A stretch of DNA of 64,000 bases, taken from IMG/VR virus record IMGVR_UViG_3300042890_004094; one strand, given 5' to 3'. The position numbers and the translations under genes were made by a program. The first letter of the stretch is position 1. Every line of letters begins with the position of its first letter. This DNA comes from a virus (taxonomy: Duplodnaviria > Heunggongvirae > Uroviricota > Caudoviricetes). Below the pieces are notes generated by a model that made no database searches, had not been told where the DNA came from, and worked only from the letters and a program-made list of their open reading frames with translations. Positions 2,038 to 58,658 of this stretch are shown here, piece by piece.

Positions 2038-2122
2038 AAGAGAGTAAGGGAATCGAACCCTACCCAGTTTCCCGGGCGTCTCGCTTAGCAGGCGGACCCT
2101 ATCACCATCAAGGTTTACTCTC
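2038..2122 (-). tRNA. tRNA-Ser(GCT), type II (long variable arm)
   Basis: Reverse complement GGAGAGT...GGGTTCGATTCCC...ACTCTCT; anticodon loop CTGCTAA; variable-arm hairpin CCCGG-GAAA-CTGGG. Confidence 0.7.
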
Positions 2123-2133
2123 CATATTTTGTA

Positions 2134-2216
2134 GTGAGCAAGGGAATCGAACCCTATACATCTAAACGTACGCACTGCTTTCCAGGCAGACCCTATCACC
2201 ATCAAGGATTACTCAC
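2134..2216 (-). tRNA. tRNA-Ser(GGA), type II
   Basis: D-arm identical to previous tRNA; anticodon loop CTGGAAA; T-arm GGGTTCGATTCCC. Confidence 0.6.
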
Positions 2217-2226
2217 TATGTTGTTG

Positions 2227-2313
2227 CGGAGAAAACAGGGCTCGAACCTGCACACCAGTTTCCCGATACCGGTTTTCAAGACCGGGGCGATACCAATTAC
2301 GCTTTACTTCTCC
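2227..2313 (-). tRNA. tRNA-Ser(TGA), type II
   Basis: Reverse complement GGAGAAG...CCGGT-CTTGAAA-ACCGG...GGTTCGAGCCC...TTTCTCC. Confidence 0.7.
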
Positions 2314-2324
2314 AAGTAATTTAG

Positions 2325-2408
2325 AAGAGAGTGTGGGACTCGAACCCACAAAGGTATTACCCTTTACTAGTTTTCAAAACTAGGCCTTCATCCAGCCAGT
2401 TACTCTCC
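2325..2408 (-). tRNA. tRNA-Ser(TGA) second copy, type II
   Basis: Reverse complement GGAGAGT...CTAGT-TTTGAAA-ACTAG...GGGTTCGAGTCCCAC...ACTCTCT. Confidence 0.6.
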
Positions 2409-2417
2409 ATATATTTG

Positions 2418-2489
2418 TGATTCCAGAGGGAATCGAACCCCCACCTGATCGTTCGTAGCGACCTATCCTATCCGTTAAACGATGGAACC
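2418..2489 (-). tRNA. tRNA-Arg(ACG)
   Basis: Reverse complement GGTTCCA...GGTCG-CTACGAA-CGATC...GGGGGTTCGATTCCC...TGGAATC. Confidence 0.7.
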
Positions 2490-2496
2490 AATTAAA

Positions 2497-2536
2497 AACA
2501 AAAAACCCACAAACTTTGAAGTCTGTGGGTTTCATA
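2497..2536. terminator. Hairpin with flanking T/A runs (factor-independent terminator candidate; minus-strand reading gives stem then TTTTTTGTTTTT)
   Basis: aacccacaaac-tttgaa-gtctgtgggtt preceded on the plus strand by aaaaacaaaaaa. Confidence 0.5.
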
Positions 2537-2553
2537 CTAATTTTTTATATCAA

Positions 2554-2631
2554 TTATGAACACAACAGAACCTCCCTCAAATTACTTGAGCGACTAGACG
2601 AACTTGACGATGTTGTGATAATTGTTTTCAT
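2554..2631 (-). CDS. Micro-ORF (25 aa, MKTIITTSSSSSSRSSNLREVLLCS) directly fused to the conserved promoter-like motif; may instead be a small RNA
   Basis: ATG immediately follows TTTTAATATATAAATAAT on the minus strand; terminated by the hairpin at 2497-2536; a related copy lies at 3695-3805. Confidence 0.25.
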   Translation of the reverse strand: MKTIITTSSSSSSRSSNLREVLLCS

Positions 2632-2636
2632 ATTAT

Positions 2637-2653
2637 TTATATATTAAAATTTT
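2637..2653 (-). promoter_or_regulatory. Conserved AT-rich promoter-like motif (minus-strand reading AAAATTTTAATATATAA)
   Basis: Member of a TTTTAATATATA family that recurs upstream of at least 10 genes in this window. Confidence 0.45.
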
Positions 2654-2675
2654 ATTCTTTGTTTTTATTTATTTG

Positions 2676-2809
2676 ATAGAAAGGTGGGACTCGAACCCAC
2701 AACCACGGCTTTAACAGAGCGAAGTAACTTATTTCATTGCTACTAAGAGTTTCTTAGAGAAAGACTGACTAAGTATGATTACGTGCTCTACCAATTGAGC
2801 TACTTTCTA
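2676..2809 (-). tRNA. tRNA-like gene interrupted by a ~58-nt insertion (possible intron); anticodon region reads TCATAC (possibly CAT)
   Basis: Canonical 5' half TAGAAAG-TA-GCTC-AATTGGTA-GAGC and canonical 3' half GTGGG-TTCGAGT-CCCAC-CTTTCTA form a perfect 7-bp acceptor, but are separated by about 58 extra nt; no 3' anticodon-stem partner found at the canonical place. Confidence 0.5.
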
Positions 2810-2813
2810 TTTG

Positions 2814-2884
2814 CACGTCGACTAGGGCTCGAACCTAGAACATTGGTTTTGGAGACCAAGATGATACCATTTCACTATCGACGT
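2814..2884 (-). tRNA. tRNA-Trp(CCA)
   Basis: Reverse complement ACGTCGA...TTGGT-CTCCAAA-ACCAA...CTAGGTTCGAGCCCTAG-TCGACGT. Confidence 0.7.
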
Positions 2885-2891
2885 GTTTTGG

Positions 2892-2965
2892 GTTGACAGA
2901 CGGGACTTGAACCCGCAATCCCTTGGTTCACAACCAAGTGCTTTAACCAATTAAGCTACCATCAA
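2892..2965 (-). tRNA. tRNA-His(GTG)
   Basis: Reverse complement TTGATGG...CTTGG-TTGTGAA-CCAAG...GCGGGTTCAAGTCCCGT-CTGTCAA, discriminator C. Confidence 0.65.
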
Positions 2966-2967
2966 AG

Positions 2968-3042
2968 TGACCCCGGTGAGACTCGAACTCACAACCCCCG
3001 CATTAAAAGTGCGGTGCTCTAAACCAATTGAGCTACGAAGTC
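2968..3042 (-). tRNA. tRNA-Lys(TTT)
   Basis: Reverse complement GACTTCG-TAGCTCAATTGG...CCGCA-CTTTTAA-TGCGG...GTGAGTTCGAGTCTCAC-CGGGGTC. Confidence 0.7.
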
Positions 3043-3052
3043 ATTATTATTG

Positions 3053-3124
3053 TGCGGACTGACGGAATCGAACCGACCTCTTAGGGACTTCACTCCTACG
3101 CTAAACCGTCTCAGCTAAATCCGC
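3053..3124 (-). tRNA. tRNA, anticodon uncertain (loop GTGAAGT, possibly GAA/Phe-like; imperfect stems)
   Basis: Reverse complement GCGGATT...GGTTCGATTCC...AGTCCGC has a perfect acceptor and T-loop; the anticodon stem has a mismatch. Confidence 0.5.
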
Positions 3125-3130
3125 AATTTT

Positions 3131-3205
3131 GGGTGAAAGACGGGGATCGAACCCGCGACAACTTGAACCACAATCAAGCACTCTACCACTGAGCTACAAT
3201 CACCA
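3131..3205 (-). tRNA. tRNA-His(GTG)-like second copy (G-1 and C73 present, two T-T mismatches in acceptor stem; possibly degenerate)
   Basis: Reverse complement G-GTGATTG-TAGCTCAGTGGTAGAG...CTTGA-TTGTGGT-TCAAG...GCGGGTTCGATCCCCGT-CTTTCAC-C. Confidence 0.5.
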
Positions 3206-3211
3206 TGTTTG

Positions 3212-3284
3212 TGGACCCTCAGGGAATCGAGCCCTGTCCTTTGGATTTTCAGTCCAACGTACGCACCAGCTATACGAAAGGTCC
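3212..3284 (-). tRNA. tRNA-Phe(GAA)
   Basis: Reverse complement GGACCTT...TTGGA-CTGAAAA-TCCAA...CAGGGCTCGATTCCCTG-AGGGTCC. Confidence 0.65.
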
Positions 3285-3294
3285 ATTATATTTG

Positions 3295-3367
3295 CACAAG
3301 CCAAGGGAGTCGAACCCTTTCCATCCGAGGTTTTGGAGACCTGGTGCATACCATTATGCTGACCTGT
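3295..3367 (-). tRNA. tRNA-Trp(CCA)-like second copy (one mismatched pair in anticodon stem)
   Basis: Reverse complement ACAGGTC...CAGGT-CTCCAAA-ACCTC...AAGGGTTCGACTCCCTT-GGCTTGT; D-loop AATGGTAT shared with the other Trp gene. Confidence 0.5.
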
Positions 3368-3376
3368 ATATATTTG

Positions 3377-3469
3377 AAGAAAGAAGAGTATCGAAACTCT
3401 TAGGGGATATCTCCACGACTAGCCTACCTCTCGGATTCGAACCGAGACCTCTTCAACCTGACTTTCTTT
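3377..3469 (-). tRNA. Aberrant 93-nt tRNA-like element (candidate Ser-CGA type II tRNA with unusually long variable region, or a tRNA remnant)
   Basis: Perfect 7-bp acceptor AAGAAAG/CTTTCTT; internal CTCGG-TTCGAAT-CCGAG stem-loop and a second T-arm-like AAGAG-TTTCGATA-CTCTT; does not fold canonically. Confidence 0.35.
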
Positions 3470-3471
3470 TG

Positions 3472-3544
3472 TGATCCCGGTGGGGCTCGAACCCACAACC
3501 TTCTGATTAAAAGTCAGAAGCTCCACCAATTGAGCTACGAAATC
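3472..3544 (-). tRNA. tRNA-Lys(TTT) second copy
   Basis: Reverse complement GATTTCG-TAGCTCAATTGGTGGAGC...TCTGA-CTTTTAA-TCAGA...GTGGGTTCGAGCCCCAC-CGGGATC. Confidence 0.65.
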
Positions 3545-3549
3545 ATTAG

Positions 3550-3622
3550 TTCCCCCGCCGGGAGTCGAACCCGGCCCCATAGGTTAAAAGCCTATTGCCT
3601 ACTACCAGTTTGCTACGAGGGA
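3550..3622 (-). tRNA. tRNA-Lys(TTT) third copy
   Basis: Reverse complement TCCCTCG...ATAGG-CTTTTAA-CCTAT...GGCCGGGTTCGACTCCCGGC-GGGGGA. Confidence 0.6.
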
Positions 3623-4140: not shown

Positions 4141-7100
4141 TTATCGTTTTAGTGTAAAATGTCCTTTATGTATTCTACCATCATTTCTGTAAGCAACGAA
4201 CCAGTAATCATTAGAAAATATCTGATTTCCATTGTAGGTTCCATCCCATCCTTGGCTAGTTGAATTAAATGATGTAATTATTTTACCATAACGATCATAA
4301 ATAATAACTTTAAAATCAGGTTCATTTTCAGAATCTTTAATTCTCCAATAATCATTATATCCATCATTATTGGGAGTAAAGAATTTGTCATAGTAAAGCA
4401 GCCAAATAACTTGACTAGTGATCCCACAATTAGCTTTATCTCTTACATAAACAGTGTATAATCCGGTAGTTAAATTATCAAAGTAGTTTTCATTTTGGTA
4501 TGTAACATTATCTAGAGAATATTCAAAGGTTCCATTACCAGATGTAATTACTGTAATAGTGTTTTCTCTAGCGGTCCAATCTGATATTTCAATACTTTCA
4601 ATAACTGGTGGTCCAGAAATGATTACATTAATACTCTGACTATTACTACAAGCCAATCCATTATAAGTATTTGTGGCGGTAACTGTTAGATTTGTTATAC
4701 CAATATCAGTAATACTAATAGATGGAGTTGTTTCACCATTAGACCAAATATAGGTAGTTGAAGACAAATTATTAGATGTAGCATCAATAATAGTAGGATT
4801 GGTTGTGCAATTCAAATAGTTTTGACTTAGATTCAAATTTGGTATTTTTCCCACAATTAAATTAAATGTTCTTAATTCATAGCAATTAGGTAAAGAGTTA
4901 AGTATAATTTTAGCATAAATAAGTTGTGGATTTATAGAAGGATTAAAACTTACTAAGTTTGTAATTTGATTAGTACCACTTTGTGCATCACTTAACGTAG
5001 TATAATAGGTTATAGTATAATTACTTACTATTTGTGTTCCTAGAATTACAGAATTCTGTTGTGATAAATTAAAAGTTTCATTATTAGTAATAATAGTTTT
5101 ACATTGAAGTAAATCACTAGGATTATTTATCAAAATAAAAGACTCAAGTATACTTACATCAAAAAATCGGTTAACTATATTACCACAATTATCTTCTATT
5201 TGAAAAAGGTAAATTGCTGGATCTAAATTAGAAAAAGTATTTGAAGTACCATTATCAAAAAAGAAAGGTAAACCATTTTTTTGTATAAGAGTATATGTCA
5301 ATGGTGCAGTTCCACTTGCCTCAACAAAAACATCTAAAGCACCGTTTGTAGAGCAAGGTAATCGATAAACATCAATAAATTCTAAAGATTCATTATAACT
5401 TAATGGTTCTAATATTTCAATACAATTTTTATCGGCATTATTTACGTCTGTAGAATTCCAGTCACTTCCATTTTGGAATGATAAAAAAGAACGAACAATT
5501 CGAAAATCGCCATTAGAACTAAAATTAAAATTGGTAGTATTGTTTATTAGGACAATTGAGTTATTTGTATTTGGAATAGTACCATCAGTATAAACTAGAT
5601 TTGTACTAGGATTTCCCCAAGTATTAGTAACCGGATCAATCAATTTTTGTAACCAAAAAGTTTCATTTGATGTTCCATTACTCACAAAGTCTAGTGCAAT
5701 ATCAAAAGAACCACAGTTAGGAACCAATGAAAAATTGGAAGAAGTGATTGTATAACCTTGTAAAATTATGTTAGTAGTATTAGTTAAGTTACATTCATCA
5801 GTTCCAATAAAAGTATAATTTCCTGCAGGAAGATTATTCATATAAAAAATACCATCAGGTGCAATGTTATAAGACACATTTAATGGAAGATTAAAATTAA
5901 ACGTACTAGGAGCTGCTGTAATAATAATAGATGTCAATTTTGAATTCAAACTTTCAATTTTAACTGCACTAGTATTCAAGTCACAACCATTTCTTATAGA
6001 ATTAGATAAACCTTTATCTACATAGGCAGGAACAACAACTGTAATAGGTGTTAAAATATCATTACAAGTATTTGTTAATTCAATTATATAATTTCCTAAC
6101 GGAACTGGATTTAATATAATTGTACCATTATTAATTAAAGAGGTTATATTATGTGGTAAAGTGAAAGGATAATCAGATGGTGCAGAGGTTACTAATCCAG
6201 TTGTGATAATATATCCGGGTATGCTTATATTTATCTTTCCTGTTGTAGTCAGACATCCATTGTGTGATCCTGTTACACTTGGAATAGGTGGTCGATTTAT
6301 TATCGTAAAAGAAATATTTTTAGTATTACCACAAGAATCTGTAATAGTAGCATCATAAGTTCCTATGGGTGTAGGTAATGTTGTATTTCCAAAAGACACA
6401 CTGTTTTGATTATAGGGACCTGGATAGGAGTCATTAAAAACTAGAGGATTAAAACCAGTTGGAAAAGAATTAAAGTTTATAGTATAAGGAGGATAAAAAT
6501 TTGAAAGATTAAATGTAAAAAAGTTTTTGTTACAATCTAAACGGGTTGTAGTGTTGGTTAGGTTTATTCCATTGTTTACAACAAAATTTGTTGAAGAATA
6601 GGTTGAATTACATGCATCAGTAATAGATATTGAGTAACTAAAAGTTTGATTAATGTAATTTGTCATGTTTTGTACCAAATTTTGTTGTGTTAAACCTCCA
6701 GAATTTAAAGTACTATTCAATATAATTGGTACACCTCCAGGTGGTAAAATAGTGTAAGTAATGTTTAACGGATAACCAATAACAGTTCCAGTTGCAGCAG
6801 TTAAGGTATTAGTAACTGAAACTAAGTTACAATTAGATAATTGAGTAATTTGAGGTTGTCCAATTGTAATACCAGTTGTGTTTTGAACGGTTGTAAAAGT
6901 TGTTACAACTCCAATTCCACAATTATCAAAAACTCTAATCTTATAAACACCGATAGGTAAATTAGAAAAAGTATTGGAACTCTGTGATGGAAACAATAAA
7001 GGTCCATTAAATATTTCATAAGAAGCAGGTGTTCCGGTCAGTGTATTTACAGTAATTGTACTTGTGTTAGAACATGCTTGATTTAAAGTTTGAATGTTAT

Positions 7101-7422
7101 AAGTTAAGGAAACAACTGAGTTTACTATTGTTACATCTTGTTGTTGCTCTGTAGTGGTTGTTCCGAAAGTTTCTCTTGCAATAACACGGTAGTCTCCTGC
7201 AACTAATCCATTGATAGTTGTAGAATTTGTTGTTGCAAATGGTGTATCTGTATTGGGTAATTTATAGATGATGTACTGAATACTTCCACCAACAATAGTA
7301 TTGGTTGTATTAAATGTTAAACTACCATTACCTGAACAAGTTTCATTGGTAGTTGCTACTGAAAGGTTGAACCCAAAACAAAATTGGGTCATAAAAAAGA
7401 TAAGATAAATTAGGCTTTTCAT
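4141..7422 (-). CDS. Large secreted Asn/Thr-rich repeat protein with N-terminal signal peptide and C-terminal type-B T9SS sorting domain (gliding-motility-associated C-terminal domain)
   Basis: N-terminus MKSLIYLIFFMTQFCFGF; C-terminus ...FFTPNNDGYNDYWRIKD...YDRYGKII...GWDGTYNG...YWFVA...; many C-x-N Ig-like repeats. Confidence 0.8.
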   Translation of the reverse strand: MKSLIYLIFFMTQFCFGFNLSVATTNETCSGNGSLTFNTTNTIVGGSIQYIIYKLPNTDTPFATTNSTTINGLVAGDYRVIARETFGTTTTEQQQDVTIVNSVVSLTYNIQTLNQACSNTSTITVNTLTGTPASYEIFNGPLLFPSQSSNTFSNLPIGVYKIRVFDNCGIGVVTTFTTVQNTTGITIGQPQITQLSNCNLVSVTNTLTAATGTVIGYPLNITYTILPPGGVPIILNSTLNSGGLTQQNLVQNMTNYINQTFSYSISITDACNSTYSSTNFVVNNGINLTNTTTRLDCNKNFFTFNLSNFYPPYTINFNSFPTGFNPLVFNDSYPGPYNQNSVSFGNTTLPTPIGTYDATITDSCGNTKNISFTIINRPPIPSVTGSHNGCLTTTGKINISIPGYIITTGLVTSAPSDYPFTLPHNITSLINNGTIILNPVPLGNYIIELTNTCNDILTPITVVVPAYVDKGLSNSIRNGCDLNTSAVKIESLNSKLTSIIITAAPSTFNFNLPLNVSYNIAPDGIFYMNNLPAGNYTFIGTDECNLTNTTNIILQGYTITSSNFSLVPNCGSFDIALDFVSNGTSNETFWLQKLIDPVTNTWGNPSTNLVYTDGTIPNTNNSIVLINNTTNFNFSSNGDFRIVRSFLSFQNGSDWNSTDVNNADKNCIEILEPLSYNESLEFIDVYRLPCSTNGALDVFVEASGTAPLTYTLIQKNGLPFFFDNGTSNTFSNLDPAIYLFQIEDNCGNIVNRFFDVSILESFILINNPSDLLQCKTIITNNETFNLSQQNSVILGTQIVSNYTITYYTTLSDAQSGTNQITNLVSFNPSINPQLIYAKIILNSLPNCYELRTFNLIVGKIPNLNLSQNYLNCTTNPTIIDATSNNLSSTTYIWSNGETTPSISITDIGITNLTVTATNTYNGLACSNSQSINVIISGPPVIESIEISDWTARENTITVITSGNGTFEYSLDNVTYQNENYFDNLTTGLYTVYVRDKANCGITSQVIWLLYYDKFFTPNNDGYNDYWRIKDSENEPDFKVIIYDRYGKIITSFNSTSQGWDGTYNGNQIFSNDYWFVAYRNDGRIHKGHFTLKR

Positions 7423-9875: not shown

Positions 9876-9894
9876 TTTTAATATATAGTTTATG
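9876..9894 (+). promoter_or_regulatory. Conserved promoter-like motif TTTTAATATATAGTTTATG fused to the start codon
   Basis: The 13-mer TATATAGTTTATG, including the ATG, is identical at 9882-9894, 28096-28108, 46307-46319 and, on the minus strand, at 11908-11920. Confidence 0.5.
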
Positions 9895-11565
9895 AAATAC
9901 TTAAAATTATACGAAGGTTTTGAATCTGATAGGATTAGTGCAATACTTTCATTTCTAAATAAAAAGATAAAGAGTGATTATCCAGCAAGAGAGTTTTTAA
10001 AAGTATTAAAAATACTTGCTGATAAATTTGATTTCCCACTAAGTACATTGAGTGATAAAGAAATACAATACCTATCAGTAAATAAAGCTTTAGCTGTTGG
10101 TAAAGGTGAAGAAGCAATGAACCCATCTGGTATTTATTGTATTAAGTATTGGTTTTCATTAGAAAAAGGTTATTTATGTAGTACTGGAACTGGAAATAAA
10201 ACTATGGACTATAATAAGTATAATTCTTATAGTGGTGTTATGATGAGTAATGGTGAAGGTTTAGATCAATCTCATTTAGCTTACTTGACTAGAGAATATA
10301 ATATAAGTGGTGTTATTACTCCGACTAGATTAGGAGATTTAAGAACTGGTGATAAAGTAGTAATGGTTTGTGGTGATGATTTCAATGGAGATCCTGCTTA
10401 TTTAACTTTTGGTGAAATATATGCCGATAATAGAAGAAATGATGATGAAATTCAATATTATTTTTATCAAAATGATCATGAAGGTTCAGATCCTGGTTCA
10501 ACTAGAAATAATATTACATTACCAGATAGATATAATCTTTATGCGGGTAATGCAGCATATCAATATGCTTGGTCATTGGGAAGTTCAGACGATCCATCAG
10601 ATGATCATTGTATGATACATAAAGTAATAATTGATGAAAACCCATTAAGATTTAAAGATGAAGATTTAGATAAAATAAATAAAACAGAAGAATCTGTTTG
10701 GGATTTCAATTTACCATTAGATGGAACTACTTTGGAAGAATGGAATAACAGAAAAACAGGAACTTTTAATAAAGTAAATAAAGAAGCAAACTTTGCAATC
10801 GTTCTTTTTCTCGATGATATAATAATTAAAAATGTTGATGATACTACATCTGATATTATAAAAAGAAGAAAATCTGGTAGAAAAGACGCATTAGCTTTAA
10901 AGAAACCAGAGGATATTAGAAAAGAAAATGTTGAAAGGTATTTAACTACTTTATTTAAAAAATTAGGAATTGAACAAGATAAACAAGAATTTAAAAATCT
11001 TAACTCAGTTGTTTTATCATCAATTATAGGAGATTATTTTATCATTGCACTTTATAATAGTAGTGCTTATATAGATAGATTATCAGACTTTATTACTTAT
11101 TTGTATAGACTTATGTCAGATAGTGAAGATTCATATAATTTTGAAAAAACATATGAATTGTTTAAGACTATTAAGAAAAGACGTTTAAAACAAACTACTG
11201 CTTACTCTAATGGTATTAAAGTTATTAAAGATAGTGATAATCAAAATACAGAAAGAATGTCTAATGTAATTGACAGAATAACTAATATAGGTCAAATTTT
11301 ATCAAATTCAATTAAAAATAGAAATATAGAAACTATTGAAGATCTTAAATCAATACAAGTTAGATTAGCATCATTATATGAATTAGTACAAGATGATATT
11401 TTTATACTTTCTAGAAATACTAAAAATGTTCTTATAAACTTAGATGGTGATACTTCTACATTAAAAGTAATTATGAGTAGATTCAGATATAGTGAAGAAG
11501 AGTATAATAGTGATATTAAAAGATTAGATAAACTTGAAAAGGTATTTAAAGATCTTTTAAGATAA
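9892..11565 (+). CDS. Hypothetical protein (557 aa), N-terminus MKYLKLYEGF
   Basis: Long ORF; shares the MKYLK-x-YE-x-F N-terminal motif with several other ORFs. Confidence 0.6.
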   Translation: MKYLKLYEGFESDRISAILSFLNKKIKSDYPAREFLKVLKILADKFDFPLSTLSDKEIQYLSVNKALAVGKGEEAMNPSGIYCIKYWFSLEKGYLCSTGTGNKTMDYNKYNSYSGVMMSNGEGLDQSHLAYLTREYNISGVITPTRLGDLRTGDKVVMVCGDDFNGDPAYLTFGEIYADNRRNDDEIQYYFYQNDHEGSDPGSTRNNITLPDRYNLYAGNAAYQYAWSLGSSDDPSDDHCMIHKVIIDENPLRFKDEDLDKINKTEESVWDFNLPLDGTTLEEWNNRKTGTFNKVNKEANFAIVLFLDDIIIKNVDDTTSDIIKRRKSGRKDALALKKPEDIRKENVERYLTTLFKKLGIEQDKQEFKNLNSVVLSSIIGDYFIIALYNSSAYIDRLSDFITYLYRLMSDSEDSYNFEKTYELFKTIKKRRLKQTTAYSNGIKVIKDSDNQNTERMSNVIDRITNIGQILSNSIKNRNIETIEDLKSIQVRLASLYELVQDDIFILSRNTKNVLINLDGDTSTLKVIMSRFRYSEEEYNSDIKRLDKLEKVFKDLLR

Positions 11566-11910: not shown

Positions 11911-11921
11911 AAACTATATAT
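11908..11921 (-). promoter_or_regulatory. Conserved motif (minus-strand ATATATAGTTTATG) fused to the start codon; contains the TAG stop of smpB
   Basis: Reverse complement of cataaactatatat. Confidence 0.45.
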
Positions 11922-12345
11922 TTCGTTGCATCTCTCTAGTAAGGTCTCTTTCTTTGATAGTTTCACGTTTATCCCAAGTTTTCTTACCTTTGGCAACAGC
12001 TATTTTAATTTTAATTCTATTATTCTTAATAAACATACCAAGTGGAATTGCAGTTATGCCTTTATCTTCCAGTTTTCTTTTGATACGAGTGATTTCTTTT
12101 TTATTTAAAAGAAGTTTCTTATCACGATTTTCTTCGTGTTTATCTAAAGTATGTGCTGATTTATAAGCTGCAACTTTTAGATTTTTAATCCACACTTCAT
12201 TATCTTTTATGTAAATGAACGCATCAACCATGGTAACATTTCCCATTCTAACGGACTTTACTTCACTACCAACCAATATTATTCCGCAGTCAAATTCCTC
12301 TATAAAAGTATATTCGTAACGGGCTCTTCTATTTAATGCTATCAT
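11914..12345 (-). CDS. smpB: SsrA-binding protein SmpB
   Basis: 143 aa; ALNRRARYEY...GSEVKS...IAVAKGKK..DKR..IKERD pattern aligns with bacterial SmpB. Confidence 0.85.
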   Translation of the reverse strand: MIALNRRARYEYTFIEEFDCGIILVGSEVKSVRMGNVTMVDAFIYIKDNEVWIKNLKVAAYKSAHTLDKHEENRDKKLLLNKKEITRIKRKLEDKGITAIPLGMFIKNNRIKIKIAVAKGKKTWDKRETIKERDLTREMQRNI

Positions 12346-18260: not shown

Positions 18261-18280
18261 AAAATTTAATATATACTAAA
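18261..18280 (+). promoter_or_regulatory. Conserved promoter-like motif AAAATTTAATATATACTAAA, about 18 nt upstream of the ATG
   Basis: Same motif family. Confidence 0.4.
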
Positions 18281-18297
18281 AAATCAAAAATCATAAA

Positions 18298-21200
18298 ATG
18301 GTTCAAAGTTCATTTCCAAAAGTAGCGGATCAAATAATAACGTATAATAAAAATATTGTTGAGATTTTATCTAAAATCAACTCTCTAACAACAACAACAG
18401 ATTCTTCTGTTACTCTTCAAGTGTATGATGAGAATGGTATATTAAGAAATTTTACATTACCTTCTTTTACATCATTGAAAGCAGATATTGATAGATTAAA
18501 TAATAATATCAATTCACTTTATAGTATTGATGCAGCAGGTGCTCTAATTCAAACCTCAACACAAAATAAATACAAAAAGATTATTACAGTTGATTTGAAT
18601 AGAGATCCTACTCCAATTGGAAGCTTAGGTGCTTTGAGTACTTTTAGATCTTCACCTAATTGGTTTTTTGATTCACTTATGGATCCTATGGTCTCAGTAG
18701 AACTTGATTTATCAGGTAAAATTGAGGATAATGTTAGAAAATGTTTGATAAGAAGATATATTGTTGAATTTGCAAAAAATGCAGATGGTTCTTTTACTAC
18801 ACTAGGTCAATCAGCGTTAAATAGTTATAATCAATTATTTAGAGGTAATCCTAATATTATTATATCAGAATTTGAAAACTGGTATACTACAACTACAGGA
18901 CTATTAAATCCAACTAATCCTAAGTATGATGAACAAATGTTTGATTTGGAGCCTAATAATCTATTATATGATGGTCAATTTAGTGTTTTAAGAATACAAG
19001 AAGATAGATTAAATAGAAAACTTTGGTATGTTTTAGATACATTAGATTACTTAGTAGTTGATGCAAACTCAACTAGAAGATTATCTATTGGAGATGAAGT
19101 TATTATAAATTCAGAAAAAACATCAACAAGATATAAAATATTAGAGGTTTCTACTGCAGAATCTAATCCAAGAATTAGAGTAGAAAGACTTGAAGGTATT
19201 GAACCAATTCCAGTTGGAATTGGAACTTTAAAAGTTTATTCATCTGTTATTTATACTAAGAGGGTTAGAGTAAGTGTTGGTTATAATGAAAGAAATGTTC
19301 TTTTTGTTAAACCAGTAAATGCTGATAATAACTTAGTTGCAAAAAAATGGAGTTTAGGTACGGGTTATTATACAAATGACTTGAGACTTACTTCTGACTC
19401 TAGTGCAAATGGATTATCAATGGAACAATTCTATATTGATTATGTTTATGATTATGGTGTTGTTTTACAAGATTTAGTTGCCAAGAAAACACCAAACTCT
19501 TTGGCAGGTACACCTGGTTCCCCAACATTGGCATTAGATAACTTTAAGGTAGTTCAAATAAATAAACATCTTACTGATACTCCTGATTCTAACTTGGTTA
19601 AACAAAAACATAATTATCAGTTATCTTTAAAATCAGAGATACAACAATTACAAGAAGCTATTATATCAAGAAATAAGGCATCAAAATTTACTAAGTTTAA
19701 ATCAGATTCTGCAAAAAAACAGGCAGACTTAGAAGTTGGAGAACTAACAAATAAGAAAGATAGTAAAAGTAAATTACTTGCATCTGTTACTCAAGAAGTT
19801 ATTGACTTATCTAAAGATCCAAAAAATAAAGTTACTCCTAAATTTAGTGTAAGAGGTTTCTGGCCAATTCCAAGTGCTGTAGTTACTACTGGTACTAAAC
19901 CACAAGAGATTGTACAATTTAGAGTTCAATATAGATATACTAGTAAAGATGGTAGAGAAGCACCGGTAGATACTTTTACAATTACAGATTCTCAAAGTAA
20001 AGCTTCTTTTTCTAACTGGACAGAATTTAAAACTGATGCAAGAAAAAGAGAGTATAATACATCAACTGGTGAATATACTTGGGCAATTGAAGATGTTACT
20101 AATGCAGATACACCAAATATTAATCAAATAGATATTCCAATTCAATCTAATGAAAGAGTTGATATTAGAATAAAATCTATCTCAGAAGTTGGTTGGCCAG
20201 AATCTGCAGTTGAATCTGATTGGTCTGAAATTATTACAATTGATTTCCCGGATGATTTAAACACAATTGCTAATGAAAATGATTTTATTTTAACTGCTGC
20301 AACTAAGGAAGACTTAAAAATAAGTATGAATTCAGAACTATCTGCAAAAGGATTAGATAATCACTTAGCAGACACAGTGACAGTAAATAACGTTACATTC
20401 CATCACGATGCAAAGAAGATTTTATCTGGTTTCCAGGATGAGAATGGAGTTTCATTAGACTTATATACTTATATACAAAATTTGGTAGATAGAATTTCAT
20501 CATTAGAAGAGAAAATTACAAGAGCTAAAGGTGAACTTCAGATTATCATTCTTAGAAATAATCAAGAGTACATAGTAAATAATGGTTCTGAAACAACATT
20601 TAATGTTGAGTGTGAAGATTATTTAACTTTATTCAATGGACAAGGTGCACCAACTGGTAGAGTTTATGAAAACAATATTTATGTTATTAAAGATTTTGTT
20701 ATGAAGATTAAAAATAATGCAAAAGAATCATTATTAGGGTTACTATCTAATAGAACATATTTACAAAGTACTGCAGTATATAATACACAAGCACCTCAAA
20801 GTTTTTGGGTAAATAGTCAAGATGAGCTATTGACAAATGATGTTATTGAAACAGGTCAAACAAGAACTCACTTAGATAACCAATTTATTTGGCAAATGAA
20901 CTATGATTCTATTACACAAAATACTGTGGCAAAATTATCTGAAAATATAGGTAATACATTTGATAATGCTACTGTAAATTCAAACTCTATAACAAATGTA
21001 CTTTCAACCAGTGATTATAATGTTGGTTATAATGAGCCAGCTATATTAAAATTTATTGGTAATAATAAATCTTTATTAGATCCATCAAAATGGAATGATG
21101 TGACTGTTTCAATTGCATCAACAACTAAGTTCTTAACGACTATACATCCAGTAGTTAAAAGTTTAGAAAACATACAAGAAAACAATAGTGATAAGGTTAA

Positions 21201-21504
21201 GACTATAAATGTTGGTGATAAAAGTTCTATTATAGTTCCACTAAATATTTATTTCAAACTTAATTCATTAGATAATAGTCAAACAGGATTAAATTATCAA
21301 TATATTGATCTTAATAATTCAACAAGAACTGTAAAACATGTTAAGAAAATTAAATTTTTCCTAGAAAATGAGTCAGAGAATAGACCATTTATATTTACAT
21401 TAAAATTTAACTTAAATAGAAATAAAGTTATTGTAAGAAAGTTCAACTCAACCGGTGGTAGTCCAGCATATATAGATGATTGGTCAACATCAAGTAAAAA
21501 ATAA
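18298..21504 (+). CDS. Large hypothetical protein (1068 aa), probably structural
   Basis: Long ORF with Asn/Ser/Thr-rich composition; first gene of a plus-strand block of large proteins. Confidence 0.7.
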   Translation: MVQSSFPKVADQIITYNKNIVEILSKINSLTTTTDSSVTLQVYDENGILRNFTLPSFTSLKADIDRLNNNINSLYSIDAAGALIQTSTQNKYKKIITVDLNRDPTPIGSLGALSTFRSSPNWFFDSLMDPMVSVELDLSGKIEDNVRKCLIRRYIVEFAKNADGSFTTLGQSALNSYNQLFRGNPNIIISEFENWYTTTTGLLNPTNPKYDEQMFDLEPNNLLYDGQFSVLRIQEDRLNRKLWYVLDTLDYLVVDANSTRRLSIGDEVIINSEKTSTRYKILEVSTAESNPRIRVERLEGIEPIPVGIGTLKVYSSVIYTKRVRVSVGYNERNVLFVKPVNADNNLVAKKWSLGTGYYTNDLRLTSDSSANGLSMEQFYIDYVYDYGVVLQDLVAKKTPNSLAGTPGSPTLALDNFKVVQINKHLTDTPDSNLVKQKHNYQLSLKSEIQQLQEAIISRNKASKFTKFKSDSAKKQADLEVGELTNKKDSKSKLLASVTQEVIDLSKDPKNKVTPKFSVRGFWPIPSAVVTTGTKPQEIVQFRVQYRYTSKDGREAPVDTFTITDSQSKASFSNWTEFKTDARKREYNTSTGEYTWAIEDVTNADTPNINQIDIPIQSNERVDIRIKSISEVGWPESAVESDWSEIITIDFPDDLNTIANENDFILTAATKEDLKISMNSELSAKGLDNHLADTVTVNNVTFHHDAKKILSGFQDENGVSLDLYTYIQNLVDRISSLEEKITRAKGELQIIILRNNQEYIVNNGSETTFNVECEDYLTLFNGQGAPTGRVYENNIYVIKDFVMKIKNNAKESLLGLLSNRTYLQSTAVYNTQAPQSFWVNSQDELLTNDVIETGQTRTHLDNQFIWQMNYDSITQNTVAKLSENIGNTFDNATVNSNSITNVLSTSDYNVGYNEPAILKFIGNNKSLLDPSKWNDVTVSIASTTKFLTTIHPVVKSLENIQENNSDKVKTINVGDKSSIIVPLNIYFKLNSLDNSQTGLNYQYIDLNNSTRTVKHVKKIKFFLENESENRPFIFTLKFNLNRNKVIVRKFNSTGGSPAYIDDWSTSSKK

Positions 21505-21513
21505 TAGTTTAAA

Positions 21514-24500
21514 TTGAAAAGTTTTGGTTTATTAAGAACAAATGTTGGATTGACAACAAATATTAAGGTTACGATTGATACTAACTATAAATTTAGTTTA
21601 GATAGTATTGAATCTGATCCTAACTTATCTTTTGACAAATTTAAAAAAGTTAGTTTCACTAAAGATAATTACTATGATGAGTTGATTCCATACTTTTACA
21701 AAGATTTACCTGCAGATACCGCATTCTCAATTAAATATGACAATGATGTTGATACAATGTCAAATGATTTCAGAAATCAATATGATGAATTATATAGTTA
21801 CGGTGCACGTAATATAGTTAATAATAAAAACTATAGTGAAGAGTATGAGTATTTTGCACCTTTATACATCACTAAAAATCATTTACCTAAAAAATTTATT
21901 ATTTTTAGAGTTGATGGTTCTGGTATTGGAACAACAGATAGAAGTAATTTTAATGCAGAAATAATTAAGAAACTAAAGACAGTTAAACTATTTGATTTAA
22001 GTAAACAAAGTGTATTAGGTGATTGGTTAGGAAAGAATTTTACAGATAATAAATACTTCCCAGATTCTCCATTGGATATAGATTTTAGAAATTTAGAATT
22101 TTGTAGATGGAATGGTATAGATTATCAGAATGGTGGATATACATATAAATCTTTATTTATTGATGATATATTAGATGAGGAAAAAGAAATATTTGAACTT
22201 GAAAAGTTTATATTTGACTCTTATAAAAATAATAAAGTTGTTTTTCCAAATATAATAAACTTCTCATTTTTATTTGATGATACTCCATCTACTCCAGAAA
22301 TTAAAAAAAAGTGGTCTATAAATAGATATTATGGATTTTATTTAAACGATTTAGAATTGGTTAAAACTGTTTCACCATATTTATCAATACCTTTAAGAAG
22401 TGATATTATTATTCAGAATAATGCTGTAATTGGTGGTGATACAAATTCGGTATCAAATATAATTTACTCACCAAGTAATGAAAATCCATTTCTTCAAGAG
22501 TGGTCAAACAAAAGACCATTTTATGTAGAGTATGATGGAAACTACTATAAAGTAGAAAAATTTACTGAGACTGTTTCAAATCAATTGGTTAAAATTCCTA
22601 ATACATTTACTACTATGGAAAGTAGAATGTCTAAAGACTTAGGATTTAGTTCATCAAAATTTAATAAAAATGCAAGTGTTATTAAAAAATCAGTTACTAC
22701 AAATACTAAATCAGCAGTAGAGGATTTTGGTGATGTTATTGTTACTAAATATAAAATAATAACTAACCTAAATTTGACCGGTTTAACTGCGTCAAGTTTT
22801 AATCAGAACTATGCAGAAATAGATCCTACTAATAAACTAATTACTAGGGATGGTAGTACAATAAAAGATTTTCAGATAGCAGGATTTGACAGTGCAGATG
22901 TTTGGATAATTGAAATTGATGGTATATATCACAATTTAGTTAATATAGATAATTATATAATGCTTAGCACAGACTACTCTTTTATTTTTAACCAAAATGA
23001 TTTCATATATAAAGTTCGTGGAGAATCAAAAAAAGTTAGTACAGTAGTTGATTTTAATAATGCACCTAAAAAGTTTTCAATTTATAAACTTAATTTTTGT
23101 GATATAAAAGATTTTGATACAAGAATTGTTGATACTGATTATTCTAAATATGAATATGAAGAGTCTACAAATATTACTACTACAGATGAGACAAAAATGT
23201 ATTTAGAAGATATAAGAAGTTTAACAGATCCTATAAATTTAGATGATTTTAGCTATCAAAATAGAATAGTTAATATACCAACCTCTTCTGAATATACTGC
23301 TAACTATGAAACATTCAAAATAGATGGTAATGATCTATCTGAGATATGGAGAAAAAATCCTGTTTATTGTAAATGGGGATTTCATAAATCACTTTCAGCA
23401 AATGATTTACCATACACTTTAAATAACTCTTTAATCTTTGAGGATTTTAATAGAACTACTAATGTTTATGAACCGTATCCTAAAAGATCTGAAAGAAATT
23501 TAGATTATTTCTATACAATAAACTCTGCATCGTCATCATATGTTTATCATAGTTTACATATAGAAAATTTAGATAATAATAACAATATAGATACTGAATT
23601 TAAGTTTGAGTTAAATAAGTATTTAAACTTTACCTATTCATATTTTGATAGTATAACATCAACAACACAATCAACATCACCATATCCATATGATTATTTC
23701 ACATATTTATTTGGTAAGTCCAATACTTTCTTTAATGGTAAGATTAAAGAAAACTCTAATAAGTATTCTTATTTTAATGTTGGTGATGAGTCTGTACCAA
23801 ATCATACTTTATTTAGAGGTATAAAATTTGATATTTATGAGGTTAGTAGTATTACAATAAATACAAATAATCAAATTGATAAAATCAATATAAAGTCATC
23901 TAACACATTTGATGATTATAAGTTTTCAGTTTTATTATCAGAAAACAATACTTCACCAATATTTGATACTTTAGATAGTAGTAAAATAACAGGACTTGTA
24001 TATTCACCTAATACTCTTATGTGGTCTGTTATAGATGAGTGGAAAATGAATAAAAGATATGTCGGTGGTACAAGTTGGGCAGGTGCATCAAAAGTTTTAC
24101 ATGATGATATTTTATATGGCAAGTATGGTAATTCAAGTACTACTAATAATCCAATATTTGCAACATATGGTGTTACAATACCTTCTGCACCATATACACA
24201 GGGTTGGACTTTTTTTGTTAGTAATAATGATTCAGTTTTTTGGTCACCTAACTATAATGGTTATACATCATTAGTGGGACCAACTGCAGCAGCCACTGGT
24301 GAGGTTTTACCATTTGGTTATAAATTACAAGAGCCTAATAAACCATCAATTGTATATAATTCTGGTGAATATTACTTTTGTTCATCACAATCTAATGCTA
24401 TTGACTTTTGGAATCCACTAAAATCTATTTCAACTGGTTATATGTCACAGGATACCGTTATTTATAAGAATAATTACTATACATCACTAAAGGATAATAA

Positions 24501-28846: not shown

Positions 28847-29039
28847 TTAGTATATATTCCAATTTTTAATATGTATAACCCCATTTGAATCTATTGTAGA
28901 ACCTTTATCCTCAATCTCTTCTTCAAAGAAATCAGTATTAAGAACATCATCAATTGTTTTATCAGATAATTCTACTTGTGGTATATCTACTACAAATGCT
29001 TCAAAAAGTTTTAAGTATTTCACTTTTTATATATTATTT

Positions 29040-30224: not shown

Positions 30225-30971
30225 TTAATATGTTAATATTTTTAAAACAACATCTTCAACAAACTCTTTCATATCTGTTGGGTCAATTGTTGCAATCGTG
30301 TCTTTTGATGAATGACAATTAAATAACATTGAGTAATCTAAATATGTATTTTCATCCCATTTGACATTTGTTTTACCCTCTAAAACAGGAGGTAAAGGAT
30401 TTATAACTACTGAGTCAATTCCATTTCTTCTAAATGTAACCGAATCATTGAAAGGTGTTCTAACTATTGGACAATCAAAAAGAGTTTTAATATGATCTGT
30501 TAAAGGTCCTGGATAATCTCCAATAAAAAAGTGTTTACCACCTTTACCACTTAACTCTAAATTAAGTACCCACTCTATATCACCAAACTTACCATTATTG
30601 ATTAGTTCTGATGCTCTATTAGAGCCTACACCACCAACTTCTTCACCATCTAATAGAATTACATTCATTGTTGGTAAAAGCTTCTTAATCATCATCGCAT
30701 TGATTACTGATGCACTATTATCATTCGCATTATCTATATTAGGATTACTTACATCATGATGTGCAACAACCATTCTGTTTGATGATCCTTGTAGAATAAG
30801 ATTATACCCTGTTACCTCAGCAGTATAGAATTTATCTAATTCATATTTAATACCTTCTGATTCTAAAAGTTCCATTAGAAATTGAACTCTTGGAGGTGGC
30901 GTTTGTGAATTATTATCATAGATAGTTCCTTCATTTCTTACTTTACAGAAGTCGTATATTTTATTGTACAT
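30225..30971 (-). CDS. M28/M42-like metallopeptidase-fold protein (putative)
   Basis: VAHHDVSNP...NANDNSASV...LLDGEEVGG resemble the His/Asp, Asp and Glu-Glu metal ligands of M28/M42 peptidases. Confidence 0.5.
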   Translation of the reverse strand: MYNKIYDFCKVRNEGTIYDNNSQTPPPRVQFLMELLESEGIKYELDKFYTAEVTGYNLILQGSSNRMVVAHHDVSNPNIDNANDNSASVINAMMIKKLLPTMNVILLDGEEVGGVGSNRASELINNGKFGDIEWVLNLELSGKGGKHFFIGDYPGPLTDHIKTLFDCPIVRTPFNDSVTFRRNGIDSVVINPLPPVLEGKTNVKWDENTYLDYSMLFNCHSSKDTIATIDPTDMKEFVEDVVLKILTY

Positions 30972-31002
30972 AATTGTATATATTAAAAAATTATAAATAA
31001 AA

Positions 31003-37083: not shown

Positions 37084-37296
37084 TTTTTTTTATACTTTCT
37101 TTACGAGAATATCTCTTATATGACTTATATGAATCTATTATCTTTTTTATGTTCATATAAGTACTACCTGTTCTCCTTTGCTTTAATAAGTACATTCTGT
37201 ATTATCTTTTTCCTTTTAATGGGTCTCATTAAAACATTTATTGTTGAATAATAATTTCTTATAACATCATTGTAAGTAGTTGCTCCACTATCCATA

Positions 37297-37551
37297 CTAT
37301 TTTTTAAGTATTTGATCAATTTTAGCTTCTCTAGCTTCTGCTTTTTCTCTTAATAAACGAGATTCTCTTTCTTGTGGAGTTTCTTCTCGCTTTTCTGACT
37401 TATCTGCTTTATATCTCAAAAGATCGTCAAAGATTCCATAATAGTCAGTGTTACCATATTTATCTACTTTCATATAACTACCTAAATCGTAGTATTTATC
37501 ATGAGTACTTTTATAAGATTTAAAGTCGTCGAAAATGTATTTCTCTTTCAT
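37297..37551 (-). CDS. Hypothetical protein (84 aa), charged C-terminal helix
   Basis: ORF ending 1 nt before the next start. Confidence 0.45.
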   Translation of the reverse strand: MKEKYIFDDFKSYKSTHDKYYDLGSYMKVDKYGNTDYYGIFDDLLRYKADKSEKREETPQERESRLLREKAEAREAKIDQILKK

Positions 37552-46298: not shown

Positions 46299-46319
46299 AA
46301 ATTTAATATATAGTTTATG
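46299..46319 (+). promoter_or_regulatory. Conserved motif AAATTTAATATATAGTTTATG fused to the start codon
   Basis: Identical 13-mer TATATAGTTTATG. Confidence 0.5.
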
Positions 46320-51504: not shown

Positions 51505-51521
51505 AAAATATATACTATTAT

Positions 51522-56012: not shown

Positions 56013-56055
56013 AGAAGTATATATTACTTCTTCTAAACCCTCTTTTTTAATTTTT

Positions 56056-56964: not shown

Positions 56965-57252
56965 TTAGTTTAGAGTTTTGTATTCTTGTTTAAGAGCATT
57001 TTCTAGTTGAGTTTCTTGTTGTTCGTCTAATTGTTTATTAAACTCTTTTTTATACCAAGAAATTAGTTGATGTATAATGATTTCTTCTGCTTCACCATTA
57101 CTGACTGCATTATAATCACCTTCTTCAACCCATTCTTTTACTTCATCAGCAAGCATTTCAGAAACAGTTTCTTCTGTGAACTGTTCTTTAATCTTTACAA
57201 TCGCATGATGTTTATCAAAAGTATTCTCGTTATATTTTTTTAAATATCTCAT
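56965..57252 (-). CDS. Hypothetical protein (95 aa), N-terminus MRYLKKYNEN
   Basis: ORF. Confidence 0.45.
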   Translation of the reverse strand: MRYLKKYNENTFDKHHAIVKIKEQFTEETVSEMLADEVKEWVEEGDYNAVSNGEAEEIIIHQLISWYKKEFNKQLDEQQETQLENALKQEYKTLN

Positions 57253-57677
57253 ATCTCATTATTATATTTTACATAAATGCTTATTCCTGAAATCTCTTCT
57301 ATAGTATGTGATTTTAATTCCTCTATTGTAAATGGAGTACTTTCATAATTAAGATCCCATACTAATATAATTTGTTCATCATCCAATCTATCGTCTAGAT
57401 TATAAGGTCCAAAAGCAGGAACTAATTTATACTTTTTATTTAAAATCTCTATAAATGGAATTAAATGATCTTTAACATCAATCCATTTAATATTTTGATG
57501 ATTATCTGTATGAACCTCTATTGCTACACAACTATCTTCATAAGTATATACAGAAACTTTAATATTATCATCATCTAATAAGTAAGCCAGATACATCTCA
57601 CTAACTTCCTTTAGTTCATTTATAAAGTCTTCAATATAAAAATTTTCAAATAATTTATAAAACTTCAAATATTTCAT
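57249..57677 (-). CDS. Hypothetical protein (142 aa), N-terminus MKYLKFYKLFENF
   Basis: ORF, 4-nt overlap with downstream gene. Confidence 0.5.
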   Translation of the reverse strand: MKYLKFYKLFENFYIEDFINELKEVSEMYLAYLLDDDNIKVSVYTYEDSCVAIEVHTDNHQNIKWIDVKDHLIPFIEILNKKYKLVPAFGPYNLDDRLDDEQIILVWDLNYESTPFTIEELKSHTIEEISGISIYVKYNNEI

Positions 57678-58630: not shown

Positions 58631-58658
58631 AGAGTATATATTAAAAATATATTTTACT

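Follow-up and report, generated by a model that had tools for sequence, protein, structure and literature searches.

Why would several otherwise unrelated proteins of a single phage begin with the same short peptide? This question is raised by a 64,000-nucleotide stretch of DNA (28% G+C, hereafter the window) from the Caudoviricetes record IMGVR_UViG_3300042890_004094 of IMG/VR, in which a first-pass annotation had noticed a shared N-terminal motif of the MKYLK type on six open reading frames (ORFs), among them the one starting at position 9892, and had proposed that it could be either a virion-packaging or localization signal or a conserved translation-initiation region. We find that this motif is an N-terminus-specific, peptide-selected, lineage- and phage-specific tag carried by many unrelated proteins, and that it co-occurs and is syntenic with a T4-type head module. 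On this basis, we tentatively read the tag as a prohead-targeting propeptide, similar to the capsid-targeting sequence (CTS) of phage T4 but used on an unprecedented scale, a reading that we regard as quite possible while stopping short of calling it probable.

The tag in the window

Among annotated phages, a single near DNA match to the window exists, the 634,780-bp "huge phage" genome LR745206.1, of which the 290-336 kb region is collinear, in inverted orientation, with positions 9.2-58.6 kb of the window (coordinates prefixed by LR refer to this genome below). Its sequence was assembled from 13 pieces and comprises 905 ORFs, which include homologs of 35 of the 58 window ORFs at a median identity of 55%; a 98%-identical protein is moreover held by a 415-kb metagenome contig from ENA. 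The huge-phage genomes of at least 634 kb described in PMC7162821 fall within the Mahaphage clade, the predicted hosts of which are Bacteroidetes.

Two sequence classes of the tag can be distinguished, namely class A, M-K/R-Y/H-L/I-K-x-F/Y-(E/K/N)-x-F-E, and class B, M-(I)-K-K/R-Y-L/I-E/D-F-I-K/N-E. The logo obtained from LR745206 reads M1, K/R2, Y/H3, L/I4, K5, x6, F/Y7, K/E/N8, x9, F10, and E11, and continues after E11 into a stretch rich in S/D/E/N. A weight matrix was trained on positions 2-12 of the LR745206 tags and used with a cut-off of 6 bits. The six N-termini initially quoted were all confirmed in the window, in which the tagged and tag-like features are the following:

9892..9930 (+), class-A tag MKYLKLYEGFESD, with L-Y-E at residues 6-8, scoring 20.2 bits in the weight matrix
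9892..11565 (+), the 557-amino acid (aa) protein bearing this tag, conserved through the lineage and matching no Pfam or PHROG family
28847..29023 (-), 58-aa acidic tagged ORF VKYLKLFEAFVVD with a GTG start, tag codons at 28985-29023, 20.4 bits
29040..30224 (-), 394-aa protein with a degenerate class-B tag MRSLTKYGEFIVE, of the form Y-x-E-F-I-x-E (compare YQEFIAE in T4)
56965..57252 (-), 95-aa acidic tagged ORF MRYLKKYNENTF, 17.5 bits, with an ortholog at LR291084-291374 (40% identity)
57249..57677 (-), 142-aa tagged ORF MKYLKFYKLFENF, with L-F-E at residues 9-11, 17.6 bits
57677..58630 (-), 317-aa class-B protein MIKKYLEFIKESE, with I-K-E at residues 9-11, 6.8 bits
62517..62765 (-), 82-aa ORF with a partial tag, MKYLIENL, a weak candidate under the weight-matrix threshold
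28106 (+), start of a weak look-alike ORF, MIKNWETFLEA
37164-37319 (-), 51-aa ORF with a TTG start, LIKYLKNS, below the threshold, overlapping the reading context of the gene upstream at its end, and probably spurious

ORFs 9892, 28847, 56965, and 57249 reach 17-20 bits, and ORF 57677 opens a run of three tagged ORFs (58630 to 56965). The GTG-initiated ORF had been placed at 28852-29028; it does exist, but 5 nt away from there, at 28847-29023(-), and we consider it a real gene because its ortholog at LR315068-315259, 59% identical, is likewise initiated by GTG. ORF 29040, which sits directly downstream of an M28 peptidase gene and has an acidic C-terminus, misses the weight-matrix cut-off, yet its ortholog LR90898 begins with MIKKYLDFIKES, and it is a member of a multi-copy family in LR745206. 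No family was found in Pfam or PHROGs for the tagged proteins of the window.

Confinement to N-termini and selection on the peptide

Over the 58 genes of the window (19,739 residues), KYL is found 6 times within the first five positions of the 58 proteins versus 4 times in 19,449 internal positions, and [KR]YL[KE] 6 times at N-termini versus once internally. This amounts to an N-terminal enrichment of ~90-fold (KYL) to ~270-fold, with a Poisson p estimated at ~6e-11 for KYL, and since N-termini are here compared with internal positions, composition is already controlled for. The motif had also been described as conserved at the DNA level. Such a similarity is present, but it is a by-product of the peptide and of an AT-rich codon usage, because the synonymous positions vary: in the tagged genes of LR745206, the Lys codons of the tag are split 39:13 between AAA and AAG (74:26% in the genome) and its Leu codons are TTA (27), CTA (11), TTG (4), and CTT (2), while TAC is somewhat over-used at Tyr3 (43% vs. 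15%). As synonymous codons match genome usage, selection acts on the peptide and the likeness of the DNA is secondary.

With regard to other genomes, the nearest cultured phage is Tenacibaculum phage PTm1 (29% identity of the major capsid protein, MCP), a distantly T4-like jumbo phage of 29-31% G+C that infects Bacteroidota, and no such N-terminus was found in its first 99 kb. The exact pattern ATGAAATAYTTAAAANNNTTTGAA returned 30 hits, all of them single, from 596 Gb of bacterial and archaeal genomes, and at least 120 loci, many of them with multiple hits, from a viral-contig collection. The AT-rich codon bias that had been put forward as what might account for the motif is ruled out as its cause by the N-terminal and internal counts, the codon analysis, the PTm1 control, and the scan of cellular genomes.

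Spread across a phage lineage

The motif had been seen on six ORFs, which holds for the window but underestimates a tag present on about 10% of the proteome of a phage lineage. Indeed, 59 of the 905 LR745206 ORFs match the regular expression ^M[KR][YHF][LI][KT], and the weight matrix gives 96 N-terminal matches at 6 bits or more when 0.8 are expected from internal positions. The strong "internal" matches of the matrix are mostly mis-called starts (~13, with Met or GTG right before the tag), so that matrix matches and corrected starts together bring the tagged genes of LR745206 to ~100-110 (11-12%), a proportion with which that of the window (6/58) agrees. Among the at least 120 loci of IMG/VR, 120 were analyzed (~1 Mb, 17-36% G+C, on contigs of 4-501 kb), and 307 of their 1,520 ORFs are tagged, often in tandem arrays (9/13 ORFs in locus L122, 10/14 in locus L093); adjacent tagged pairs number 11 in LR745206, versus 3.8 expected.

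Once their first 16 residues are removed, 71 tagged proteins from the window and LR745206 fall into 64 components unrelated by BLAST, and 268 unique tagged proteins from IMG/VR, trimmed of the tag, into 145. The largest of the latter components has 46 members; some arrays are therefore paralogous expansions, even though the tag still spans many unrelated families. The lengths of tagged proteins lie between 50 and 557 aa (median 153 aa), and these proteins are more acidic than the others, with a median isoelectric point (pI) of 4.95 and a pI below 6 in 80% of cases versus 56%. Pfam domains were detected in only ~10 of 150 tagged proteins and include phage lysozyme, M15 cell-wall peptidase, leucine-rich repeats (LRR), ankyrin, Zeta-toxin/AAA_33 kinase, NUDIX, methyltransferase, and a putative metallopeptidase. 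By their predicted domains, these carriers are effector-like or cell-wall hydrolases, and we counted them in favor of packaging.

Class A is absent from the ~42 kb around the MCP gene in a 735-kb genome, a 462-kb genome, and Lak-A1. In this segment of the 735-kb genome (L169, LR756501.1 56427-98160), several ORFs have shifted, looser starts (MNKLKTYKTFENA, MEKFRKLKTFENY, MENLNDYKQFNEN, and MIKRFNNFVKES), which suggest a lineage-specific drift of the same kind of tag. The 735-kb genome has MNKLKTYKTFEN as a lineage-specific variant.

One match to the tag stands apart from these N-termini: at residue ~383 of the protein encoded at LR745206 172579-174999(-), KILKTFESFVS scores 18 bits with no start codon before it. 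Its carrier is an 806-aa protein adjoining the tail-sheath gene, and the match could stem from an internal start, a fusion, or chance.

Conservation and position outside the predicted fold

In the family of the 9892 protein (109 homologs), most full-length members retain a near-unchanged tag down to ~25% identity, with the consensus start MK[YH][LI]K[LF][FY]E[AG]F and a few diverged forms such as MRFIKSRLQFINES and MKYLKYNNQFINER. When the 29 homologs below 40% identity are considered, residues 1-12 rank first of 546 windows of 12 residues, with a conservation of 75% versus a mean of 27%. In a similar way, almost all of the 120 homologs listed for the 57677 protein, out of 779, begin with MIK[RK]Y[LI][ED]FI[KNS]E, and variants such as MFKYLEFLKE are few among these 120.

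AlphaFold2 (AF2) models place this conserved segment outside the predicted fold in both families. The model of the 9892 protein has a mean pLDDT (predicted local distance difference test score) of 79.8 and an average of 33 over residues 1-12; that of the 57677 protein has a mean of 81.7 and stays below 50, at about 33, over residues 1-14, the folded domain starting at residue ~13 in the former model and ~20 in the latter. Structure comparison gave no fold match for either model. To be the best conserved part of a protein, as measured for the 9892 family, while falling outside its fold is what marks a short linear motif for docking or processing. The pattern of a Sec, Tat, or lipoprotein signal peptide was not found in the logo, in which charged and aromatic residues alternate before an acidic polar stretch, with no hydrophobic stretch.

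A T4-type head module in tagged genomes

With T4 proteins (AF158101) as queries, LR745206 was found to encode the terminase gp17 (4e-50), the portal gp20 (5e-23; Pfam Portal_T4, 3e-57), the MCP gp23 (Pfam Gp23, 2e-26), as well as gp4, the gp18 sheath, and the gp19 tube. Immediately upstream of its MCP gene lies a 707-aa ORF with a gp21-like N-terminus (NRNERIYTADKF...GEFDHPD):

L005:2546-4669, i.e. LR745206 198546-200669, protease-scaffold ORF, with counterparts at L056:1938-3872 and L085:3798-5888

The link to the T4 prohead protease is in part transitive, from T4 gp21 to the IMG/VR homolog of this ORF in L056 (1e-9) and from there to the LR745206 protein (4e-49). The remainder of the ORF contains ~12 tandem repeats of 14 residues, YSEY(L/I)AENLDKNI, the YSEY(L/I)AE part of which resembles the T4 CTS core YQEFIAE, and which carry (L/I/V)-x-E sites; with ~12 repeats bearing (L/I)-x-E, this ORF therefore looks like a protease-scaffold fusion.

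The same structural genes are present in the tag-rich IMG/VR loci, and tagged genes are found in their midst. In L056, the portal and protease-scaffold genes are separated by a tagged 283-aa gene, in the slot of the prohead-core genes 67/68 in T4, and in L085, L091, and LR745206 a small tagged gene comes directly after the MCP gene. The MCP, sheath, tube, portal, and protease-scaffold proteins of LR745206 are themselves untagged. As for a residue after which a gp21-like protease could cut, all tagged proteins of LR745206 have a Glu by residue 14, the first one being at position 8, 9, or 11, when 64% of the untagged proteins have one by residue 16. The six tags of the window all have an (L/I)-x-E within 23 residues (LYE, LFE, IVE, LFE, IKE, and a later IKE).

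A promoter-like box close to start codons

A promoter-like box, AATATATA, precedes ORF 9892 and recurs ahead of other genes of the window, tagged or not:

9880..9887 (+), 4 nt before the ATG of ORF 9892
29028..29035 (-), 4 nt before the GTG start at 29023
58635..58642 (-), 4 nt before the ATG of the three-gene tagged run
46305-46312 and 51507-51514 (+), before the starts at 46317 and 51522
56018-56025, 30977-30984, and 11915-11922 (-), before the starts at 56012, 30971, and 11910
18268-18275 (+), 22 nt before its ATG

Eight of these boxes lie 4-5 nt ahead of a start codon. In LR745206, AATATATA precedes all the T4-type structural genes at ~20-25 nt from the ATG, and is only 3-7 nt from the start codon in 79 genes. 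The late promoter of T4 is TATAAATA, and by analogy the box is probably a late-type phage promoter giving rise to leaderless or near-leaderless mRNAs. In LR745206, TAATATATA is found before 36% of tagged genes versus 13%, and 19% of the genes of the 3-7-nt class are tagged versus 5% (p = 3e-5). However, the box is missing from 37 of 59 tagged genes, and the proteins of most boxed genes start with unrelated sequences, so that this mode of initiation does not depend on the tag. An explanation of the tag by leaderless mRNAs was rejected, its association with the box being partial.

Other genes of the window

Beyond the tagged ORFs, the products of the window include a tyrosyl-tRNA synthetase (TyrRS), YqeY, SmpB, an S1-domain protein, an NAD-dependent ligase, Sir2, an SbcC-like ATPase, M16 and M28 peptidases, an SPFH protein, a giant glycosyltransferase/methyltransferase, and a CHU_C-domain protein. 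The main ones among these and the other features are located as follows:

30225..30971 (-), peptidase M28, immediately upstream of tagged genes, 69% identical in LR745206
35344..36453 (+), peptidase M16 (insulinase / mitochondrial-processing-peptidase family; Pfam Peptidase_M16 and M16_C)
2039-3622 (-), array of 13-14 tRNA genes (Ser x3, Lys x3, His x2, Phe x2, Trp x2, Arg)
4141-7422 (-), protein of 1093 aa, hydrophobic at its N-terminus and with a CHU_C type-IX-secretion sorting domain at its C-terminus
18298-25788 (+), block of two large ORFs, 1068 and 1424 aa, with identities of 74% and 52% to LR745206
38353-50960 (+), block of three large ORFs, 1911, 713, and 1547 aa
58659-62474 (-), 1271-aa protein combining GT1-type and GT9 heptosyltransferase/TibC-like glycosyltransferases with a methyltransferase domain

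The M16 peptidase is 77% identical to LR310766-311875, and the M28 gene adjoins the tagged GTG ORF in LR745206 as it does in the window. The tRNA array has one additional match, at 2039-2122, found with Rfam only, and its region reaches 37% G+C, above the rest of the window. Judging from its sorting domain, the CHU_C protein at 4141-7422 is consistent with a Bacteroidota host and with the export of a phage protein through the type IX secretion system of this host. The two blocks of large ORFs are almost free of Pfam matches, the sole ones being a weak pentapeptide repeat and a weak PT-HINT, and from their sequences they may encode virion or tail-fiber components. The 1271-aa gene is directly upstream of the three-gene tagged run.

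What the tag may do

In T4, the first 10 residues of internal protein (IP) III suffice to bring proteins, foreign ones included, into the prohead core (PMC9026906, PMC3012670). Within the CTS, residues 4 and 7 are important in targeting, and 8 and 10 in the cut made by gp21, and the internal proteins of T-even phages are diverse anti-restriction proteins of which the CTS is the sole common part (PMC9026906, PMC3012670, PMC5694885). IPII and IPIII of T4 begin with MKTYQEFIAE and IPI with MKTFKEF (AF158101; the string is also in PMC8442874). For the tagged proteins, scaffold binding, packaging, cleavage, and ejection are the steps that we infer as most likely: the amphipathic N-terminal peptide, lying outside the fold, would dock on the scaffolding core of an assembling T4-type prohead, and the tagged protein would thereby be enclosed in the head; the gp21-like protease, fused to the scaffold in this lineage, would then probably cut after the conserved Glu at 8-11, and the mature proteins would leave the head and enter the Bacteroidota host along with the DNA. 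The relaxed class-B pattern Y-x-E-F-I-x-E is found 4 times at the N-termini of LR745206 versus 3 times in 180,413 internal positions. The packaging or localization signal that had been proposed at the outset is thus the best fit to the T4-type head, the synteny, the position outside the fold, and the T4 precedent, even if the support for it is circumstantial.

Several observations weigh against a CTS-like role. The class-A matrix applied to the N-termini of the T4 internal proteins gives p values of 0.07-0.22 per position, which are not significant, and we therefore claim a functional analogy with the T4 CTS and not a homology. Around 100 packaged proteins per genome would far exceed what any characterized phage does. 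The internal proteins of T4 are basic, when the tagged proteins are mostly acidic. The direct scores of the protease are weak (1e-3 with blastp; E = 0.005 for Pfam Peptidase_S77, under the curated cut-off), and a strict (L/I)-x-E is found within 16 residues in just 46% of the tags, versus a background of 23%. Furthermore, the head module is found in the relatives of the window, is absent from its 64 kb, and is attributed to its phage by collinearity. Finally, PTm1, Lak-A1, and the 462-kb genome have a T4-type MCP and are tag-less in the regions sampled, so that the tag is not required for this type of head.

In a broader version of the sorting hypothesis, which we hold to be rather unlikely, the tag would be the address label of a protein-sorting system unprecedented in phages, routing ~100 mostly ORFan acidic proteins. 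Their destination could be the capsid, in which case they would form a "starter proteome" co-injected with the DNA, or alternatively an intracellular site built by the phage, the presequence being then removed by M16 and not by the prohead protease.

The tag could also be a linear motif for a partner that has nothing to do with head packaging, be it processing by M16 or M28, a DnaJ-like chaperone, or intracellular sorting. Selection on the peptide, its place outside the fold, and its unrelated carriers would suit any docking motif equally well, and ~100 tagged proteins are easier to conceive for cytoplasmic sorting or processing than as capsid cargo. M16, a speculative candidate for an alternative tag-processing enzyme, and M28 are both conserved in LR745206, as is a J-domain protein, and M28 adjoins tagged genes in both genomes. 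However, the ~1 Mb of tag-rich IMG/VR loci, a partial sampling, yielded no homologs of M16 and M28, and the synteny of the tag with the portal, protease-scaffold, and MCP genes, together with the T4 precedent, points to the head. We consider such a partner unlikely. Still less plausible in our eyes is an uncleaved amphipathic helix that would anchor proteins to the host membrane or to another surface. Hydrophobic residues at 3, 4, 7, 10, and 11, together with the Lys of positions 2 and 5, do draw an amphipathic wheel when the logo is so projected, Y3, L4, F7, and F10 forming a hydrophobic face flanked by Lys, and the tag is predicted to be free of the fold; but AF2 predicts no stable helix there, acidic polar linkers and mostly acidic carriers suit anionic membranes poorly, the invariant Glu is left unexplained, and no membrane-related domains are enriched among tagged proteins.

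The other function proposed at the outset, a conserved translation-initiation region, would make the tag an optimum of initiation or early elongation (a "ramp" or a need of leaderless mRNAs) devoid of any function as a peptide. Lys-Tyr-type codons at positions 3-5 reportedly boost expression in Escherichia coli. Many tagged genes have AATATATA 4-5 nt from their start, the tag is enriched there (19% vs. 5%), and TAC is over-used at Tyr3 (43% vs. 15%). Nevertheless, the other synonymous sites follow genome usage, conservation reaches as far as F7, E8, F10, and E11, boxes and tags mostly occur without each other (37/59 tagged genes being box-less), and the late genes with the highest expression (MCP, sheath, tube, portal, and protease-scaffold) are untagged. 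Besides, PTm1, which shares host phylum and G+C content, has no tag in 99 kb, and 596 Gb of cellular genomes yielded only 30 single hits. Codons that are free at synonymous sites, untagged late genes, independence from the box, and tag-less AT-rich controls hence disfavor this hypothesis, to which we grant very little credit. The least probable option to us is that tagged proteins are diverged paralogs of one ancient family, the N-terminus being its slowest-evolving remnant. Tagged genes do cluster (11 adjacent pairs vs. 3.8 expected), some of the tandem arrays consist of evident paralogs, a single BLAST family accounts for 46 of the 268 proteins from IMG/VR and, in L122, for 6 of 9, and the family of ORF 29040 has at least 8 copies. 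Yet the tagged proteins form 64 and 145 components that BLAST does not relate, span 50-557 aa, bear differing Pfam domains (lysozyme, LRR, NUDIX, kinase), and have the tag outside two unrelated predicted folds; moreover, even among paralogs, a disordered 11-mer must have a function to be kept under purifying selection.

To come back to the CTS-like propeptide, if the tag were a genuine packaging signal, it would offer a sequence-only readout of the injected protein arsenal of uncultured huge phages, with ~100 candidates per genome and thousands across metagenomes, and thereby a rich source of candidate anti-defense and host-takeover proteins. The T4 CTS principle would then be scaled more than 10-fold in the largest known phages, and the tag could serve as a portable means of loading cargo into their capsids. 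If the destination were elsewhere, an undescribed sorting or processing pathway would operate in megaphage infection, with a peptide selected on 10% of the proteome.

Comparison with known systems

That an N-terminal peptide can target proteins to the capsid is already known from T4. In the literature searched, mostly without subscription journals, "MKYLK" was not found in a phage context, the huge-phage paper PMC7162821 makes no mention of an N-terminal tag, and there appears to be no earlier description of one 11-residue consensus carried by ~10% of the genes in a megaphage lineage, of its spread over more than 100 environmental contigs, or of its two sequence classes.

Outside phages, two systems invite comparison. 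RxLR and PEXEL, found in eukaryotic pathogens, are short N-terminal host-targeting motifs that mark a delivery route, and not a biochemical function, on hundreds of small, rapidly diversifying, tandemly arranged ORFan effectors; their organisms, sequences, and machinery are entirely different from those of the tag, and the analogy is conceptual only. The cargo-loading peptides of encapsulins are short, conserved, disordered terminal peptides that bring unrelated cargo into an HK97-fold shell, usually C-terminal, uncleaved, and binding the shell protein itself. By analogy, they resemble the tag as a short terminal address on unrelated cargo, although no encapsulin would be involved here.

Among phages, a closer case is that of phiKZ-like giants (SPN3US, phiKZ, 201phi2-1), in which a gp21-related prohead protease cuts after Glu, propeptides are thought to send ~50 proteins into the head, and the paralogs gp53 and gp54 share an identical 15-residue N-terminus (PMC5694885). 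These propeptides are however mostly 80-160 residues long, with A/S/G-x-E sites and no genome-wide consensus, when the tag comprises ~11 residues on ~10% of genes; a long propeptide of the phiKZ/SPN3US type (>80 aa) was not found here, the conserved segment being of ~11 residues.

The closest system is the T4 CTS itself, as far as the work of Mullaney and Black (1996) is relayed in PMC9026906 and PMC3012670. It differs from the tag by its three internal proteins in T4 versus ~100 carriers per genome, and by the lack of significant similarity with the dominant class A (MKYLKxFExF); conversely, the tag often misses a strict (L/I)-x-E and comes with a protease fused to the scaffold. Both are nonetheless N-terminal peptides of ~10 residues beginning with MK, with aromatic or aliphatic residues ~3 apart and one Glu, that are common to otherwise unrelated, fast-evolving proteins in phages with a gp23/gp20/gp21 head and that lie outside the mature protein, here by prediction. 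In this regard, class B comes nearest: its KYLEFIKE and KYGEFIVE fit the T4 heptad Y-x-E-F-I-x-E, and (K)Y-L-E-F-I-K-E matches the (T)Y-Q-E-F-I-A-E of T4 up to and including the I-x-E cleavage site.

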